Below are positions 15,301 to 30,525 of a stretch of DNA of 39,881 nucleotides, piece after piece. Every line of letters begins with the position of its first letter. Position 1 is the first letter of the stretch. A program made the position numbers and the translations under genes. The stretch lies in the IMG/VR virus record IMGVR_UViG_3300043448_000119, positions 1 to 39,881 of that record. One strand, given 5' to 3'. The notes under the pieces are model-generated. The model worked only from the letters and a program-made list of their open reading frames with translations, was not told where the DNA came from and did not search any database. Origin of the DNA: a virus (lineage: Duplodnaviria; Caudoviricetes).

Positions 15301-16743
15301 TTTACCATAGTAGGATAAAGGATCGGCTGTGATTAATGCTGTTTTTGCGCCAACGCTTGCTCCACCGAAACTAGCACCAGTACCAAATGCAGCTGGAGAG
15401 TAACCAACTTGACCATCAACAACGCTTGCTTCACCCATGAAGCGACCATTAGATGCCCAGTTGTATGGATCTCTAATTACAGCTGTGCTACCGATAACTG
15501 GGTTAATACTCGCGCCTTCCATGTGATACTCAACACGATCACCAGTATTAAATGTGTGAGTAGATGTAGTAATTCTACCAGCATTAGCGCCAGTTCCAAT
15601 AGTAACACCACCTGCAGTGAATGTAATAGAGTTTACGTTTGCTGTTGTGCTTCCGCTAAAAAATGGGACAGCAATAGGAGCGCTAACATAACCTGCGCCA
15701 CCATTCACAACTCTTGCTGAAGATATTGGAGCATTTAATACAGTATTAATATTACTATTATCAAAATATAATGTTCCCTTACCAACAAATCTATATGGAG
15801 TTACTGATGTGATTCTATAATCTAATACAGATTCACCAATAGAAGTTGATGTTGTTGTTTTCTCAGTAGTTACTGTATCGTCAGAATTAAAGTTTGCAAT
15901 AGGAATATCTTGACGATAGATAGCAACAGTGTTAAGGAAATAAAACGGTGTATTTAAAGAGAAACCGTGTGGAAACTTAGTCTTAACAATTAGATGTGAT
16001 GGATTTAATCCATTGGTTTCAATATCAGCGACAGTAATCTGAGAACCAAAATAGAAAGCACCTGGAATAACAGCAGTGTAAACGGTAGATAATTCTAATG
16101 TTGTTTGTGGTGAGAATGTTAACTGATATGTAAACTGACTTGCGCTAATAACTGCGGTAACAATATAACCACCCTCAAACTGAGAGTTGGCAAGACCAGT
16201 AATTTCAAATGGAGAACCAGCAGTTAAACCGTGACCTGGAGCAGTAACTAGAACTGTTGATGAACCTTGAGTTGATTGAACAGATGACACTGAGATCGCA
16301 TTCGCACCATTTCTTGAATAAAATGATGGTACGTTATTAACAAGTTTTAGCGTTTCCCATTTTGTGGTTTGTAAACCATATTCAAAGTCAGTATCGATAA
16401 GGTTTTCTGGCTGAGAAATACGTATCTTAGAAACTGGGTCAATAAATGGATCTTCAGGGCGAATTTCTGTCGATTCATTCTCAACTAGAACCTGAAGTGT
16501 ATCAGTATTTACAACATTAAGTGCGGCTAGAGACTGCCTAAAGACAAACTTAGTTTCATGTGTATCTAAATTATATTCTCTAGTAAGAACGCCAGACCCT
16601 TCGTCCGCGAAGTTGTAAATAATTCTATTTGTAGTTACATCAGTAATAAGCAATAATCTTTGCAAGAGAATATTGCCATTAATGTAAATAGCATTATTAT
16701 CTCTATCAATTCTATATCCTGTTGCTAATAGTTTCTTAGCCAT
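6349..16743 (-). CDS. Giant multidomain tail fibre/virion protein (3464 aa)
   Basis: 10.4-kb Thr/Gly/Ala/Ser-rich ORF with a GAGGA RBS. N-terminal LLLITDVTTNRIIYNFAD domain; many H[GP]x..GD.V.Y...Y[FY]V and STxGLxxGM beta modules; C-terminal RQTRKYFRYQSGKG...GLFDTQNGMFFEYDG...QW..D..DG.G.SG...IDYSWYGAG.IRFG putative lectin-like domain. Confidence 0.85.
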   Translation of the reverse strand: MAKKLLATGYRIDRDNNAIYINGNILLQRLLLITDVTTNRIIYNFADEGSGVLTREYNLDTHETKFVFRQSLAALNVVNTDTLQVLVENESTEIRPEDPFIDPVSKIRISQPENLIDTDFEYGLQTTKWETLKLVNNVPSFYSRNGANAISVSSVQSTQGSSTVLVTAPGHGLTAGSPFEITGLANSQFEGGYIVTAVISASQFTYQLTFSPQTTLELSTVYTAVIPGAFYFGSQITVADIETNGLNPSHLIVKTKFPHGFSLNTPFYFLNTVAIYRQDIPIANFNSDDTVTTEKTTTSTSIGESVLDYRITSVTPYRFVGKGTLYFDNSNINTVLNAPISSARVVNGGAGYVSAPIAVPFFSGSTTANVNSITFTAGGVTIGTGANAGRITTSTHTFNTGDRVEYHMEGASINPVIGSTAVIRDPYNWASNGRFMGEASVVDGQVGYSPAAFGTGASFGGASVGAKTALITADPLSYYGKIEIGQELRLWSISATTTTAPTLLTPEGTKISSYEIQNNILTIVIEFPYNLATGINFNATTAWYAASISSQTSIIRTDDHGFVTGDRVYYRRVVTASGTVNANSPALAVIGGLTDSTPYFVIRIDADNFRLAATYSDALRGNFIKFTNIGSGCFNNATGRFLPGNVFIASSLSLYVRNLSATTIQLHPTRNDALNNTNVITYTAGGSGTAQRFSAAPAVFSTTVTGSSVSSISVVDAGWAYDRNSSISALAYQETRALDLSGFSGGTRASGSTNQLTFKATLYDKQIYPGMVVSGTGIPTNATVNTVGAPDVNNFVTVQISANINAAITHGQKITFSDNPGTAANLQPNIRVSCFNVPNHGYALGDALWFYNPPGNTFPAALTASRNYFVYPIDDDNFALLATALPTVYSQTNSNARVVLNTGTILEGRKFVATRSFRFVSSSSSVITLNASVSGVSYGLAAGDAFIVTNNTANGALANTTITNAVDATTNNTAHTVYYVRTVTNSGFDLTFSTGPANPLVTPGARTNGEVFITPIVLLAESDSIYIPSHGFLNNDYILYTATDTAIQSPSATSLAAAGSNGYLVEKVSDDRFKLKDRATGALIDLRGFGTGSHKFTGVKYSTIANTVYKPNHGFLANQTVIYDSAGAPIVDGLRNTFEYFVKAVNTDNFRVSTTTQELAITAVSKAANTSTMTITFNVNHSLSVGDSIIIRDNPNSYMNGFWTVATVPATPVINAAPSTITVSIPVFTNPAPAVTQNAATGVTYGIAYKYVDFANVTARRAIITPVPAGKTFTTLKAIDGLLDKKTPSANGGGIVTNHLVKSSDVLPFESKVSAVTGSNIRTARILFKPRDIASAVRASNVVTITTTEAHGYENLQTVTIQGLPTTSFNTASPVTITTTGTNTFTFAQTGSDETATVDVDSIVVMALTPTQAALLSSVGHDANSGANNVAVAAGVVSAVSTTATVATATQISNVTKSLAANAGLINQYTLIVPDTLDLKPGMPVVGTGINTDARILRILSPTQIELTAPHTATTTAGTYTFFKIQAGQEVTQATPNLSTVAAATATANTNTFTVKSNTGLAVNMYVDGNRSTTTFAATAGEGNTFEVSSTANIYTENRVQTAAAVTSAVPFNSSAVFLATGAVAGTSGFSNIRGFKADSGNDVYTSTDGRPSAILSSIRLPQHPYLTGDPVRYFSNGGNDIGGLTNGNLYYIIKVNANYIQLASSLADAQSNTFIPLTTYGSGSQQYIRGNIFWGNSFTGGGTLTEGHHVNATTAGFTTALPQGSVVVSKRTVPDSPSAYRSVAFVVGYKDANNNLDETVFASDTYRVGSIGSTTGDEPVINTSIIRGGFGSVGNRIFCDSTTGLQVGMVPVLATNVAGSAGALVTTPVATFVTSVAVDGKSFTVNQAPSTALFGQRIIAGAGSVVVTLACTATSSVTNAITTSGNTGNIEVNNPVVFTGTTFGTILTNTVYYVKQILSATTFTVSETISGGVAGTVKTLTTATGTMTLNSNMVYTSSTAGLVQGMAIEVTATGAITTGGISSAGAMSNNTRVAAIIDSNRFVLTDAPSTALSGARFIAGVSSGTGTGLTNDIYVPSATGFKVGQLLTLISTATGGQGAFATATTYATQTVIQSIVTTNPLKPTLITGTANATTGVITAGNTPATRLAGTVIAAGIGSSTPTTSIIRVPSTVGLNTGMTVAVTAGTGTLAATGLLITDIDPILNTFTVGASPTVALSNASITGTIAGAVIPGLYVSSPEANFPENVTVTAVSGTTVTISDIHGGVTAGQRVTFSPFPVGAYVTAFSGTAPNITVTLNQTHAGMFGGTFINFNRLPPRTFLGSIPPYVASNWALRLDFSTPLPVAYTAESRPLVFTGSNKNLGDNVSFKSYGTHVFTRASDADGVYIIEDIPDPTTFVVATSSNIPFNTKSFTNTEVNTTQDYIRIQNHKFRDGTSLIYRPGSATPIATASYVDKDGVTQTALVSGQTYYAVVVDPNFVKLAPTFDEAVSPTPTTIDLTAGTNGSQSFDTYSIVGLTKGLGTVVVTEESDIITGIGTKFLTNFKGGDVLRFYTAANPGKIFNYTISSVKSDTSIKLRSPITPDAIVKVNLIIDRTVSSGAAVTTGSQTITVNNAADLAVGYYLFDSNGRFKANTRITAINGNILTISEYLNSSFAAGNAISIQPVFEYFINTNIYVKSNATTAHRPFDGGVTMTTGLVPDSSVVRQTRKYFRYQSGKGIQVSIAINFNPPTDCEELTSNENIAKIKVDSPHGFKPGTTNKIRITEATVASGHNGYNGQFDILEVVDEYTFTYVYEDTPLFGTVTNGTNTIGSVWNLNGVAVGKTIKAGTYSGITIPANTIITDVNTNTKVLTLSNSITGSSPTVAISSITRLNDTVTVVTSSNHGLVTGDYISISGTGVGANFNGFSAPVTVVDTTSFTYTQAGINTTENTGTVIKQIRLPIYRQNGSSVAYGFPKFNLVSWKDAAVRCGLFDTQNGMFFEYDGQQLYCVRRSSIQQISGRINATYRSSLITGEKTKFTTQLNVGEYVVIRGMSYKVIGIDSDTQMYIQPEYRGSTLTNIIGTKTIDTKVPQNQWTLDKADGNGRSGYVLDLNKIQMVYIDYSWYGAGKIRFGVKDQRGEVRYFHEFIHNNEFVEAYMRSGNIPARYEVVTFGEPTFSPQLFHWGTSVIMDGRFDDDKAYLFTADSNVITLTNGGTQIVASLASTNINRGDDFILVTNANSSKFIVGSSVSVQNDFNNFYLPANTLVKSVSIVAGTTNSRVILTQRFRNAITGIGANGQNFIVGGGTSNQSISALAPVPLVSIRLAPSVDNGLTGGLGFRDVINRMQLTLNSCGVLLTHESEIKLFLNSDLSDSNFVNNTAPSLSQIYRHSPGETIKNGIQLFSFRASGGSIISATTGQRSLIQTTAELGEVAQLGNSILGGDETFPNGPDILTITATPIDTSTINGSAPFQASARITWSESQA
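10075..11240 (-). repeat. Four degenerate protein repeats (SxxG[LF]xxG[MQ]...PxxxL) in the 3464-aa protein
   Basis: NRIFCDSTTGLQVGM..APSTALFGQRIIAG; NMVYTSSTAGLVQGM..APSTALSGARFIAG; NDIYVPSATGFKVGQ..TPATRLAGTVIAAG; SIIRVPSTVGLNTGM..SPTVALSNASITG. Boundaries are approximate. Confidence 0.7.
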
Positions 16744-17013: not shown

Positions 17014-20000
17014 TTATTTAGCGGACATATAAGTGAAACTTAGATTCATAAACGCTGAATTTGTAAGAGAAGTATGGGTTAGTGGGATCCATCTTCCTGT
17101 TAGCAAGTTGGTGTATCCTAGTCTTATGATGTTTGAAGATTGTGGAATAACAGCCATTGCTGGTCCAAATTGTTCTGTTGATTCATCAAAATTAAATCCA
17201 AAAGATTGCTGAGTAACACCATATGATTGATACGGTAGACCAATAATAGTCAACTCACCAAGAGAAGTTCCAAATTGAATTAAACGAATTTGGATATTTA
17301 CTGTAACAATTCTTCCAGTTTTAACATATTGACCAATATTATTTAGGTAGATTAACCCAACAGAATTTCCACCAATTCTTAATTGTGGAGTAAACGAACC
17401 AACTTCTTCATTTACGTTTCTACTTACTGTACTAAAACCAAGATGTTGAATAGTAACTTTTTCCCCAGTAGATCTTGGTGTAACAAACTCGATAGAATCC
17501 GAGCTACCAAGAACAGCAACAGCTGTCGCTGCGACTAGAGGAACATCTCCAGACTGCGGTGTTACCACGACAGTTGGGGTATTTTCGTAACCTGAACCCT
17601 GATTCGTTACTGCTATACTTGCAACCCCATATCCCAGTCTTGCAGTAGCAGTTGCTCCGCTACCGCCACCACCAGAGAATGATACTGATGGAATGCTTGT
17701 GTAAGAAGATCCAGGACTAATAACTGTAACAGCAACAACCGATCTAGCAAGTGTTACTGTTGCAGTTGCTGTTGTTGTATTAGTGTCGCCAACTTGTGGT
17801 GTAATTGTAACTTGAGTGCTTAAATTATATCCAGAACCTGCGGTGTTAACTCCAATGCTTGCGATTCCATACCCAAGAACAGCAGTAGCAGCAGCGCCAG
17901 AACCATCACCAGTAAATGAAACTGTTGGGGCAGAAGTATATCCTGAACCTCCAGAAAGAACAGTTAGATTCTTAATAGAACCTGTTGATGCTAGGTTTGC
18001 TGTAGCAGTTACGCCAGTTCCTGACCCACCAGAGAAAGAAACAGTAGGAGCAGCAGTATATCCAGATCCGCCAGCGGTGATTGTGATAGAAGCAACAGCA
18101 AAACCTAGCACAGCAGTAGCAGCTGCGCCAGAACCATCTCCAGTAAATGAAACTGTTGGAGCAGAAGTATAACCAGAACCATTATTGGTAATTGTTAATG
18201 ATGCTACAGCAAAACCTAGTACAGCAGTAGCAGCTGCCCCCGATCCACTTCCCGTAAATGAAATTGTTGGCGCTGAAGTATAACCAGAACCACCAGCAGT
18301 AATTGTAATTGAAGCAACAGCAAAACCTAGTGTTGATGTAGCAACTGCACTTGTCGTTGCTGCTTGTGCGCCAGTGTCAGTAATGACAACTGTAGGCGCT
18401 GAAGTATATCCAGATCCGCCAGAAGTAACATTTAAACTCGCAAGGGTATAACCAAGAACCGCTGTTGCAGAAGCACCATTACCGTCACCAGTAATTGTAA
18501 TTGTTGGAGCTGACGTGTAACCAGTGCCATTATTTGAAAGTGAAATAGAAGCAATAGCATAACCAATTACTGCATCTGCAGTAGCTGGGTTTGTAATCGT
18601 GTCGCCTGGATCAGCAGTAATAACAACAGTTGCTGTGGTGTAACCAGAACCAGCATTAGTGACTGTAATTCCTGTAATTGTTCCACCAGAAACTGTTGCA
18701 GTAGCAGTAGCACCAGAACCATCACCGCCAAATGTAATTGTTGGGGCAACAGTATAACCAGCGCCACCGTTGGTAATATTTACTTGTTTAATTCCACCTG
18801 TTGATGCTAGAGTCGCAGTAGCAACTGCGCCAGAACCACCACCCCCAGAGAAAGAAACAGTAGGAGCATTTTGATAGTTAGATCCACCGTTGTTTAACGC
18901 AATTCTTTTTACGTTAGCAGTAGCAGATAATGTTGCGGTAGCAGTAGCACCAATACCAGAACCACCACTGAAAGAGATAGTAGGGGTAGCTTCGTAACCT
19001 GCTCCAACATTACTAAGAGTTAATGATTTAATTACACCACTAGAAGCAAGAACAGCATCTGCAGTAGCGCCACTACCGTTACCGCCAGTAAATGTTACAG
19101 CAGGTGCTTCTTCGTACAATGTCCCACCTGAAGTAACAGAAGCAGAAACAACGCTACCTGATGTTGCTAAAGTTGCAGTAGCAGCAGCATCGTTTCCATC
19201 ACCAGTAAATGAGACTGTTGGTGCTGTAGTATAACCAGAACCACCATTGCTTAGTGTTAAAGTTTTAAGAGCACCAGCAGTAGCTAGTGTTGATGTTGCG
19301 GTTGCTCCAGTTCCATTACCACCAGTAAGGGTAACTGTAGGTGCTGATGTATAACCAGAACCACCATTATCAACTGTTGCAGTATTAACTGCAAATCCTA
19401 AAACTGCAACTGCGGCTGCGCCAGTTCCGTCACCACCTGTAAAATCTACGGTGGGGGCGCTGCTATATCCAGAACCAGCATTGTCTAGAGTTAGAGATTT
19501 TAAAGAACCAGTTGTTGTTAGAGTTGCTGTTGCTGTTGCGCTTGATCCACCACCACCTGTAAAAGTAATAGATGGTGCTGAAGTGTAGTTTGCTCCTGGA
19601 TTTGTTACAGTAACAGAAGCAATTTTACCAGTAGATGCTAGAGAAGCCTCAGCTACTGCTCCCTCTCCAGCACCACCTGAGAAAGAAACTGATGGTGGTG
19701 TTGTGTAATCATCCCCACCATTATTTACGGTTACACCCTTAACAATACCAGTTGTTCCTAGAGTTGCTACTGCTGTTGCTCCAGAACCATCACCAGTGAA
19801 GGAAATTGATGGAGTCTGCTCGTAACCTGTTCCGTTATTTGTTATAGAAACAAGTTTTACAGATCCAGTAGTCGCTAGTGTAAAATCTTCAACAGGAGTT
19901 TGAACTTGCCCATCAACAGAAACCAAAAGTGTATTGATGTAATTTTCTGGTTGCGACAAAGAAAAAGAAACTTGATTATTAGTTGCGGTATACTTATCAA

Positions 20001-20565
20001 TAACAAAATTTCTTAGATTCTCTGATAGAGTCTCTGGTGTCACAGATCCAGCTGCAGGAACTAGATTATAAGTTGCGCCACCATTGTTTATTGCATAAAT
20101 TACTGCGCCAACATCTGGAACGCTAGTAAACTGCAAACCATAGTCGTATAATTCTTGGATCTCTGATACTAAACCAGAAGCAAGAAGAATAGCATTTTGA
20201 GATTCTACTCTAATGCTACTTGCTTGGAAATCAGCAGAAGATGTTTGAAGAACATCAACATAACCGCTGTTCTGAACGTAGTTAATGACAATACCAGAAG
20301 CAGCAGTTGCTGATTGGTTAATTGTTCTGTTAACTTCAAAATCATTAATCTGACCAGTTAGTCTTAAACGCTTTAATGTGACAACTTTATACGCATCATC
20401 AGGTTGCTGTGGTACGTTCTCTACAAAAACTGTTAGATTACCTGGGTATCCACCTGGAACTGGATTGGATAGCAAAAATGTTTGCTGTACGCCATCTCCC
20501 CTAAATTCGTCTTTAGGTCTTGTTCCAGTAGAAACGTCAGCTACTGTATTTCCGATATATGCCAT
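17014..20565 (-). CDS. Repeat-rich virion/fibre protein (1183 aa) with 20 GxGY..AP repeats
   Basis: MAYIGN start; two interrupted small beta-sandwich domains; a ~789-aa block of ~39-aa repeats; C-terminal EVGSFTPQL...GQYVKTGRIVTVNIQI...IIGLPY receptor-binding-like head. TAATG overlap with the upstream gene. Confidence 0.85.
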   Translation of the reverse strand: MAYIGNTVADVSTGTRPKDEFRGDGVQQTFLLSNPVPGGYPGNLTVFVENVPQQPDDAYKVVTLKRLRLTGQINDFEVNRTINQSATAASGIVINYVQNSGYVDVLQTSSADFQASSIRVESQNAILLASGLVSEIQELYDYGLQFTSVPDVGAVIYAINNGGATYNLVPAAGSVTPETLSENLRNFVIDKYTATNNQVSFSLSQPENYINTLLVSVDGQVQTPVEDFTLATTGSVKLVSITNNGTGYEQTPSISFTGDGSGATAVATLGTTGIVKGVTVNNGGDDYTTPPSVSFSGGAGEGAVAEASLASTGKIASVTVTNPGANYTSAPSITFTGGGGSSATATATLTTTGSLKSLTLDNAGSGYSSAPTVDFTGGDGTGAAAVAVLGFAVNTATVDNGGSGYTSAPTVTLTGGNGTGATATSTLATAGALKTLTLSNGGSGYTTAPTVSFTGDGNDAAATATLATSGSVVSASVTSGGTLYEEAPAVTFTGGNGSGATADAVLASSGVIKSLTLSNVGAGYEATPTISFSGGSGIGATATATLSATANVKRIALNNGGSNYQNAPTVSFSGGGGSGAVATATLASTGGIKQVNITNGGAGYTVAPTITFGGDGSGATATATVSGGTITGITVTNAGSGYTTATVVITADPGDTITNPATADAVIGYAIASISLSNNGTGYTSAPTITITGDGNGASATAVLGYTLASLNVTSGGSGYTSAPTVVITDTGAQAATTSAVATSTLGFAVASITITAGGSGYTSAPTISFTGSGSGAAATAVLGFAVASLTITNNGSGYTSAPTVSFTGDGSGAAATAVLGFAVASITITAGGSGYTAAPTVSFSGGSGTGVTATANLASTGSIKNLTVLSGGSGYTSAPTVSFTGDGSGAAATAVLGYGIASIGVNTAGSGYNLSTQVTITPQVGDTNTTTATATVTLARSVVAVTVISPGSSYTSIPSVSFSGGGGSGATATARLGYGVASIAVTNQGSGYENTPTVVVTPQSGDVPLVAATAVAVLGSSDSIEFVTPRSTGEKVTIQHLGFSTVSRNVNEEVGSFTPQLRIGGNSVGLIYLNNIGQYVKTGRIVTVNIQIRLIQFGTSLGELTIIGLPYQSYGVTQQSFGFNFDESTEQFGPAMAVIPQSSNIIRLGYTNLLTGRWIPLTHTSLTNSAFMNLSFTYMSAK
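17015..17021 (-). promoter_or_regulatory. T4-type late promoter core CTAAATA
   Basis: Plus-strand tatttag at 17015-17021 overlaps the end of the 1183-aa gene, about 22 nt upstream of the ATG at 16993. Confidence 0.55.
17509..19875 (-). repeat. Array of 20 degenerate ~39-aa repeats (h..h.h.NxGxGYTxAPTVxFxGxGxGAxAxAxL)
   Basis: Counted directly in the translation from LATTGSVK to VAVLGSSD; 2367 nt / 20 is about 118 nt per unit. Confidence 0.9.
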
Positions 20566-29094: not shown

Positions 29095-30525
29095 TTACAT
29101 TTCAACAATGATTTTAATATCTTCGATCTGATCACCTGCGCGATTAATTGGGCGACGGTTTTCAACATAGATAATATCACCACTATCTGAGTTAACATCT
29201 GGATCTGCGATAGAAAGCACAGTTCCCTGAGCAGCAGATGTTGAACCAACAATAGTTTCACCTGCTTGGAATAACCTACCAGTTGTTGGATCTGGTGTTC
29301 CAAGAGCGGTACCATCTTCTTTAGTTTGAATATAACGAAGAGTCTTTGGGGTTGAACCAGTGTTTAGAGAAACGATTCTTCCTCTTGCTCCACTTGTTTG
29401 TCCTTTTACTTCTTCGTCAATTGCAAATGTTCCGCTAACAGCAGAATAAGAAATAGTTCTATTTGAAATTAAGGTAGCCTGAGTTGCTACGTTATTTGTA
29501 CCGAAGTTGGTTGGGTCGCGAACTAGGCAAATACGACGATAATCGTTGTCAACTGGGAAGTCGCCAGCACCATCATCATATTCTAGACGCACGTTCATCA
29601 TAACATAGAAACCACCAAGCTCTTCAACAGCATCAAAACCATGACCACCCTTCGGAGAAACCATAGCAGTAGCAGTAGCGTTGTCAGTGCCAGTAGCTGG
29701 AGCACCAATAGTAACACGTGCCCAAGTGTAACCAGATCCAGGATTAGTTATAGTGATTTCTCTAATGCTATTAGTTGCACCATCAACAACAGCTGTAGCT
29801 GCTGCGCCAGCACCATCACCAACGATAGTCACTGCTGGAATACCAACGTAGTTAGAACCAAATGCGGTTACTTTAATATGCTCAATACCACCGTCAACAG
29901 CTGCCTGTTCAACTAGATACTGTTTGTAGTAGGAATCTGTTGATCCTGGGTTTGATCCAAGAGTTTTAACTGGAACGAAATCTGTTGAAACAAATTTAAG
30001 AACATCTGATGGAGCAATGGTATACATATACTTCCAAACATAACCGTCTGGAGTTGTGATCTTAGTAGTTTCAGTTCCTGTTGGTTTAAATGTAGAAGGA
30101 ACTACAACACCATTGCTTGTGTTTTTAATGCACTTGTATACGTTATATTCGTCAGTGATTACATAGAAGTTTGCGTCATATAATGATGCAGGTAGAGTTG
30201 GTGCTCCTGAATCAATATTAACACCTGTAGTAGTTCCGTTATAATCATGACGATAGATGTCATAATACTTACCAGAAGTCCAGTTTCTACGCACGACTGA
30301 TAGCGATACGTCTGTTGCTTGAATACGCTTCAATGCAAGCATGTCGTCCCAATTATAAAACTCATCACCAACAGTATCGTATGGTGTATTTGGTACGTTA
30401 TCGTTTGCCCATGCTTGCGGTCTACCAATGCCTAGATACATGTTCGTAGGCGCAGACTCGTTGAAGCCCTCTTTGAATGATTGCGCATTGTGAATGCGAA
30501 ACTTGTTTGTAATAATTGCAGCCAC
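29095..30525 (-). CDS. gp8: Baseplate wedge protein gp8 (476 aa)
   Basis: MAAIITNKFR...YLGIGRPQAW...RRNWTSG..YD.Y...FYVIT.EY.VYKC...DGYVWKYMY...SGDIIYVENR.PI.R..DQ.EDIKIIVEM; synteny after gp6/gp7; GTG start with AGGAG RBS. Confidence 0.92.
   Translation of the reverse strand: MAAIITNKFRIHNAQSFKEGFNESAPTNMYLGIGRPQAWANDNVPNTPYDTVGDEFYNWDDMLALKRIQATDVSLSVVRRNWTSGKYYDIYRHDYNGTTTGVNIDSGAPTLPASLYDANFYVITDEYNVYKCIKNTSNGVVVPSTFKPTGTETTKITTPDGYVWKYMYTIAPSDVLKFVSTDFVPVKTLGSNPGSTDSYYKQYLVEQAAVDGGIEHIKVTAFGSNYVGIPAVTIVGDGAGAAATAVVDGATNSIREITITNPGSGYTWARVTIGAPATGTDNATATAMVSPKGGHGFDAVEELGGFYVMMNVRLEYDDGAGDFPVDNDYRRICLVRDPTNFGTNNVATQATLISNRTISYSAVSGTFAIDEEVKGQTSGARGRIVSLNTGSTPKTLRYIQTKEDGTALGTPDPTTGRLFQAGETIVGSTSAAQGTVLSIADPDVNSDSGDIIYVENRRPINRAGDQIEDIKIIVEM

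Follow-up and report, generated by a model that had tools for sequence, protein, structure and literature searches.

Fold-back stalks, in which the chain runs out and back and brings distant segments together, are represented by the streptococcal antigen I/II and the needle of T4 gp37. In these proteins, dissimilar helical segments are paired or strands are bundled into a trimer; neither consists of a series of globular domains whose two halves are distant from each other. Tandem repeats are assumed to fold either like beads strung one after another or into a solenoid. Nesting of one domain within another has been described for the T4 sheath protein gp18, in which four unlike domains are nested as a "Russian doll" (PMC3004832; PMC6088184). 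Its domain I (PF22639; PDB 3foa, 3fo8) is the innermost insert, protrudes, and binds the baseplate and the retracted fibres (PMC3004832, section 12). Self-nesting has been described for Si3 of the cyanobacterial RNA polymerase RpoC2, where recursively inserted SBHM/HABAS domains reach six levels (PMC13114784, PMC10895346); a survey of 2.7 million classified domains takes a six-level nest as the extreme case (PMC13114784).

The window analyzed here is the whole of a virus record of 39.9 kb (39,881 nucleotides). It contains one long minus-strand gene cluster with a T4-type baseplate and fibre region, in the order gp5, PAAR, gp25, gp6, gp7, gp8, DUF4815, two small genes, the gene P0001, a 75-aa gene and the gene of a 3464-aa virion protein. 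P0001 (17014..20565; minus strand, as are all features of the gene given below) encodes 1183 aa and was assigned as a tail-fibre/spike-like protein by annotation searches and its orthologues. According to our analysis, its repeat array very probably forms ten nested domains, repeat i with repeat 21-i, in an out-and-back rod, a reading that is well supported, by computation only. This pairing had been put forward in the original prediction and is supported by array-less orthologues, by even counts and equal arms among relatives, by covariation confined to the mirror register and by a confident nested model of the inner six domains. The accompanying wording, that a domain consists of two distant half-repeats, has to be corrected: each repeat is a half-domain.

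Si3 resembles the P0001 array in that a small beta module is inserted in its own copies, the domains are discontinuous and an elongated arm arises from one loop. Si3 comprises eight domains on six levels, is branched and includes four domains that are continuous, whereas the P0001 array would be a strictly linear ten-level nest (eleven levels counting the host) built of a different module in a different host, with near-identical repeats and a linker-length code. Si3 sits in the trigger loop of RNA polymerase beta', whereas the host in our case is a phage fibre-like protein. The Si3 structure 8emb was the top row of a Foldseek PDB search with our model of the inner repeats (model 2, see below), without reaching significance (E 0.034, TM 0.11), and was absent from the 50 listed VIA rows.

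The host protein begins with a small beta domain (aa ~17-163; 20077..20517), whose approximate boundaries were read from the sequence. The N-terminal part of a second host domain follows (aa ~187-230; 19876..20007); alignment to the relatives P0123 and P0124 places its last strand directly before the insertion site. Beyond the array, comparison with array-less relatives identifies an exit linker and the final two strands of this second domain (aa 1020-1043; 17437..17508), which must rejoin aa ~187-230. The C-terminal domain (aa ~1052-1183; 17017..17412) resembles that of a solved tailspike: a profile of 10 array-less relatives matched residues 399-529 of the "Tailspike" PDB 6f7d/6f7k (E 6e-6). 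A weak match to the T7 tail-fibre N-terminal family PF03906 was obtained for the host domain in the relative P0124 (E 6e-4, below the cut-off). P0001 itself had no Pfam family above the cut-off (E 0.01), PF22639 included, and no PDB sequence match up to E 1; its repeats match many PHROG virion families. The C-terminal tailspike match and the weak T7 fibre likeness indicate that the host protein is likely part of a fibre or spike, and the fibre-type end domains and the position downstream of gp5, gp25, gp6, gp7, gp8 and DUF4815 are those of a tail fibre or tailspike.

The array itself consists of 20 direct repeats of 34-39 aa (~35), occupying aa 236-1019 (nt 19860-17509). Re-parsing of the open reading frame 17014-20565 (minus strand) reproduced the repeat number and the linker order AAABAAAAA-turn-BBBBBABBB of the original prediction. 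An A-type linker of five residues (19861..19875) leads from the host domain to repeat 1. The outgoing arm (repeats 1-10, aa 236-625; 18691..19860) has the linkers GTTGI, ASTGK, TTTGS, GFA, ATAGA, ATSGS, ASSGV (its boundaries read by eye), SATAN and ASTGG. A unique four-residue turn, SGGT (18679..18690), lies at the array midpoint between repeats 10 and 11, as had been predicted, and is the sole hairpin turn among the linkers of the structural model. The return arm (repeats 11-20, aa 630-1019; 17509..18678) then has GYA, GYT, GFA, GFA, GFA, ASTGS, GYG, ARS and GYG. The lengths, 5,5,5,3,5,5,5,5,5 / 4 / 3,3,3,3,3,5,3,3,3, thus sum to 8 (5+3) in all nine pairs counted outward from the turn, in agreement with the predicted A+B rule. 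The lone short linker of the outgoing arm (repeats 4/5; 19390..19398) faces the lone long linker of the return arm (repeats 16/17; 17977..17991), both located by the array parse and by comparison with an orthologue. Given the make-up of the arms, this match has a chance of 1/9; the probability is 0.011 if 9 A and 9 B linkers are ordered at random.

The motifs cited in the original prediction for the likeness of the outer repeats are present; compared with cross-arm pairs drawn at random, mirror pairs are only slightly closer to each other (54% vs 51%, p 0.023). The term "palindromic protein" does not hold, since every repeat is direct and there is neither a residue nor a DNA palindrome; an inverted-pair search of the DNA gave just four short pairs (20-23 nt, 74-80%). 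Similarity between the repeat copies at the DNA level is 44-81%. A 79% identical orthologue (L001/P0122; also L014 and L018) has the identical 20-repeat count and linker order, and this, together with the divergence of the DNA copies, rules out an assembly artefact. The amino acid identity of the two arrays (77%), with half of the conserved codons silently changed, shows the array to be real and conserved.

A homologue search with aa 1-236 of P0001 gave 190 proteins, of which the best 150 were examined. Two of these, P0123 (396 aa, 54%) and P0124, can be aligned with P0001 over the full length apart from the array: in place of the 790 additional residues of P0001, a hairpin loop of six residues joins two strands of a small beta domain. 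The loci L005, L006, L012, L013, L016 and L017 carry a syntenic array-less form of 392-397 aa, and a short hairpin is found at the insertion site in many more relatives among the matches listed. The whole nest thus corresponds to one insertion in one host loop, and the array is dispensable in these relatives. If the host domain still folds, the two ends of the array must meet, since the array-less orthologues have a plain hairpin at this place. Any repeat match was present in 2 of the 150 listed relatives, and no intermediate repeat number was found among these 150 representatives or in 22 loci. In a search for further array-bearing orthologues by way of the C-terminal domain, which had limited sensitivity, not one of 257 candidates (proteins of 650-2071 aa) gave a score. 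The first host domain is also interrupted at the equivalent hairpin, by an unrelated insert of ~80 aa (aa ~62-143; 20137..20382) in place of the short hairpin of P0144 and similar relatives, which points to the hairpin loop as an insertion hot spot. In the relative P0151, the first-host-domain insert holds four copies of the P0001-type repeat, an independent gain.

Two AlphaFold models of the array were compared. Model 1 covered aa 185-1045 (17431-20013) with 39 alignment rows, mostly out of register. It reached a pLDDT of 52.9 with no residue above 90, and had a beta-helix topology per VIA; a viral Foldseek search with it gave nothing informative. Taken at face value, this topology would make the array a parallel solenoid of the tailspike kind, with a rung for every three-stranded repeat, and VIA matches to beta-helices with Z up to 18 agree with it. 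We nevertheless attach next to no probability to a beta-helix: besides the low confidence and the misregistered rows, 20 rungs would keep the halves of the host hairpin a long way from each other, and even counts, equal arms, mirror covariation and lone two-repeat units would not be accounted for. Parallel stacking of successive repeats occurs in the model of pLDDT 53 only and is absent from that of pLDDT 94. For the P0001 array, a routine alignment would thus lead AlphaFold to the wrong fold, and public models of this repeat family may be wrong in the same way.

Model 2 was restricted to repeats 5-16, the inner six domains, with 24 rows. Its 22 homologue rows were picked for register from a larger trial; 16 were fully centre-registered, 2 mostly and 4 not. 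The best of five models had a pLDDT of 93.9 and a pTM of 0.63; the five pLDDT values were 93.9, 84.4, 60.8, 47.2 and 46.6, above 80 in 2/5. The topology was deduced from the ranges of the VIA matches. All 50 listed matches straddle the central turn and none is confined to one arm. Single-domain ranges (60-78 aligned residues) correspond to the pairs 5+16 (2-466), 6+15 (37-430), 7+14 (76-393), 9+12 (155-314, one row) and 10+11 (196-276), that is, to five of the six modelled domains, with 8+13 absent among the matches listed. In this model, strand C, the linker and the next strand A make continuous strands of 20-22 residues, the central linker alone is a turn, and the strand breaks come in mirror pairs (linkers 5/15 and 7/13); DSSP gave no alpha-helix. 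Discontinuous domains, each hosting the next, are seen in this predicted model and are in line with the covariation described below. The structure prediction proposed as a check therefore bore out the nested arrangement for repeats 5-16, at pLDDT 94, but not for the full array, where the misregistered alignment gave a low-confidence beta-helix. A confident model with sequential domains, which had been named as refuting evidence, did not appear.

Such a sequential arrangement would have neighbouring repeats (1+2, 3+4 or 2+3, 4+5) form successive barrels, with the linker pattern as a relic of separate duplications of an A-block and a B-block. Repeats 14, 15 and 17 indeed look recently duplicated (73-85% identity), and some relatives, such as P0071, have several turns. 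The central linker as the only turn of model 2 and the lack of any listed VIA range within one arm (0/50) speak against it, and the host domain would be split.

Covariation between repeats provides a further line of evidence. The data set comprised 61 even, isolated arrays of at least 8 repeats, with 13 split, degenerate or multi-array proteins excluded by hand; dereplication left 45 proteins with 304 pairs, and partners were shuffled within each protein for the null. Position 4, in strand A, covaried with position 4 of the mirror partner at z 8.8, the null maximum (95%) being 5.1. Further pairs in the mirror register were 6-4 (z 5.0), 1-33 (z 5.7) and 2-35 (z 5.5), against the same maximum. 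In the non-mirror registers (six shifted, two sequential, one parallel), z(4,4) ranged from -1.6 to 0.9; a single stray column pair at 5.0-5.5 appeared in each of three shifted registers. Total mutual information is raised in the mirror register (Z 7.8), but also in the sequential 1+2 register (7.2) and at shift -1 (5.4), so that only specific pairs discriminate. The value for the 1+2 register is of the kind that sequential barrels would give; in neither of the two sequential registers, however, did any column pair exceed the null maximum, and we consider barrels formed by neighbours barely credible. The position-specific signal is confined to the mirror register.

The residue at position 4 was identical in 127 of 229 mirror pairs, vs 0.40 expected by shuffle, in a test that was selected post hoc, after the data had been seen. 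With one protein per cluster and the query excluded, 34/63 pairs were identical (p 0.019); by cluster, p was below 0.05 in 4/14, and cluster 3 fell below its null. In the query, the three leucines at position 4 of the outgoing arm all face the three of the return arm (chance 1/84), and the orthologue retains two of these three Leu/Leu pairs. Across relatives, the identity of whole repeats is not raised in mirror pairs (0.509 vs 0.506), and the agreement at position 4 is therefore not a product of shared ancestry. The same figures rule out descent of whole repeats in mirror order.

The search with the repeat gave 5158 matches among 7994 scored proteins, and the best 120, together with P0001 and P0122, were analyzed. 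Among the isolated arrays with at least 6 repeats, 81 of 109 had an even repeat number (p 4e-7), as did 41 of 54 distinct cluster-count pairs (p 2e-4). The expectation of even counts in homologues was thus largely borne out, but a minority of arrays (28/109) are odd. Most of these can be explained: many either come from cluster 0, where a domain begun ahead of a long insert is completed by one additional repeat, or reflect faulty parsing. Among nine proteins inspected individually, P0090 (23 repeats) was left without an explanation. In cluster 0 (31 proteins), the arms were equal in all eight arrays read by eye (6+6 twice, 7+7 three times, 8+8 once, 9+9 twice), and both linker classes occur in reversed order, short out and long back. 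Other clusters have linker pairs of 4+4, 3+3 or 1+1. The expected complementarity of linkers around the turn therefore holds in cluster 0, but A+B is just one scheme. P0071 and P0059 have turns every 3-4 repeats, from which it follows that not all arrays form one hairpin. A sugar-binding domain occupies the stalk tip in some relatives, P0033 having an F5/8 type C domain in its tip unit, and P0040 has a 174-aa insert in the turn; the P0001 array is without a tip domain.

Stand-alone two-repeat units number 34 in the homologue set, and another is found in the phage of P0001, where the repeat parse and annotation place a minimal two-repeat unit with its turn in the baseplate protein gp8 (29659..29904, minus strand). 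One such unit also occurs in gp6 of L002/L003. Cluster 1 (24 proteins; P0006, P0011, P0032, P0039, P0083, P0085 and others) contains copper-oxidase-like cellular proteins with P0001-type arrays, mostly even, from sources that name Chlorohelix and Methanoperedens. In P0061, the 12-repeat array at aa 959-1436 consists of two direct copies of a six-repeat block, each with a 10-residue linker at its middle; only at this position does direct copying produce a mirror match as well. A block duplication of this type could give rise to both arms at once. A search of the ESM Atlas returned nothing beyond unnamed clusters or scores under 0.9, and a PDB search with profile A6 matched only flanking copper-oxidase domains and one repeat protein.

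Tailspikes are trimers. The C-terminal domain of P0001 resembles a tailspike domain, and the mirror register could in principle lie between chains of a fibre that is oligomeric (probably trimeric), so that one subunit would contribute the outgoing arm and another the return arm of each pairing. Neither parity nor linker sums nor covariation separates pairing within a chain from pairing between chains. We regard an inter-chain register as very improbable all the same, because in the single-chain model of repeats 5-16 (pLDDT 94) all pairs are closed and the central turn is tight, and the repeat also exists as lone two-repeat inserts.

Based on these results, we propose that pairing within one chain shapes the array as follows. 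The 20 repeats would form one block inserted in a beta-hairpin of the tail-fibre-like protein. In the model, each repeat gives three strands (A, B and C), and two repeats appear to close one six-stranded, pseudo-two-fold barrel like T4 gp18 domain I; the ends of the barrel are predicted to adjoin at its base, and the C-to-A hairpin at its top to accept the next barrel. Outgoing and returning linkers would run side by side as a two-stranded ribbon, and such pairing would tie their lengths to a constant sum, 5+3 in P0001 and, among relatives, 4+4 or 3+3. The short linker has an aromatic residue that probably makes the joint stiffer, and the swapped linker pair may alter the bend. Folding would begin at the central turn and zip back to the base. 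From strand lengths, the rod is estimated at roughly 30-35 nm, and it may stand out from the fibre and serve as an accessory arm for spacing or docking; the chances that spacing or adhesion is in fact its role seem to us evenly balanced.

The likeness to gp18 domain I is based on structure. The two-repeat barrel matched gp18 residues 98-187 with a VIA Z of 6.5, an rmsd of 2.5 A, 70 aligned residues and 21% identity. The best three VIA rows listed are T4-type sheath proteins (Z 6.5, 6.3 and 5.7; rmsd 2.5-2.8), and the next, unrelated row has 3.7. The barrel thus has the six-stranded fold of domain I, with a Z that is middling by the note of the tool, clear of the unrelated rows and obtained over the whole domain. 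In gp18, one copy of the barrel, with a helix, is part of a sheath protein, whereas P0001, a fibre-like protein, would have a helix-free barrel nested in itself to a depth of ten. In sequence, a two-repeat profile of the main repeat scored gp18 domain I no better than shuffles (86/1000 higher). A profile of a bridging subtype, which occurs at the tips of related arrays, was built from 17 stretches around a motif picked after seeing gp18; it gave gp18 domain I 25.3 bits (0/2000 shuffles) and repeats 10+11 25.5 bits. A sequence link to domain I via the tip subtype is therefore suggestive. The gp7-like baseplate protein at L002:3536-6124 seems to contain nested halves of a second module subtype, with a motif closer to gp18 domain I.

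The GSGY-type repeats of ~40 aa in virion proteins of T4-like cyanophages (PHROG 701, 460, 708, 438 and 19630) are the same repeat, with E down to 1e-114. Foldseek viral matches of model 2 are likewise cyanophage baseplate and virion proteins, one of them over 79 columns at 1.3 A. These GSGY-type proteins have generic annotations only, and our results would assign a fold to this repeat, which is very common in T4-like virion proteins but unannotated. In cultured-phage records, 0 of 58 matches cover 80% of the P0001 array. No paper was found on this repeat, its fold, ten-level depth or self-nested phage stalks in a literature search whose coverage largely excluded subscription papers and supplements. 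The original prediction, which knew of no such description for phage virion proteins, stands in this respect, but the nesting principle itself is known from the gp18 sheath, with unlike domains and four levels. The P0001 case adds an array-less orthologue, a residue signal confined to the mirror register, a nested model of high confidence and the fold of gp18 domain I.

We lean towards a broader reading, in which the widespread unnamed repeat family of the 5158 matches (phage, bacterial and archaeal) derives from the domain I fold of the T4 sheath and is a module that nests in itself. Its arrays would be bracket-like, with paired linker lengths and a core residue setting which repeat closes which, and would give length-tunable single-chain rods of 3-12 domains, deeper than any published nest, whose length changes only by matched gains at two distant gene sites. 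If this is true, a plain-looking array such as that of P0001 would be a nested rod. It would offer a clean system for a folding question, since in every domain one half has to wait hundreds of residues for the other, and for an evolutionary one, namely the way in which units are added to a gene at two mirrored sites. The rules are simple (a 35-residue half, paired linkers, insertion sites at tip and loop) and would suggest a programmable single-chain spacer.

In addition, the 3464-aa virion protein of the window contains at aa ~338-365 (~15650-15740, minus strand) a half unit of the P0001 repeat type, recognized by eye. The other strands of this half unit seem to lie a few hundred residues further on, around fibre-like modules, which is possibly more nesting.
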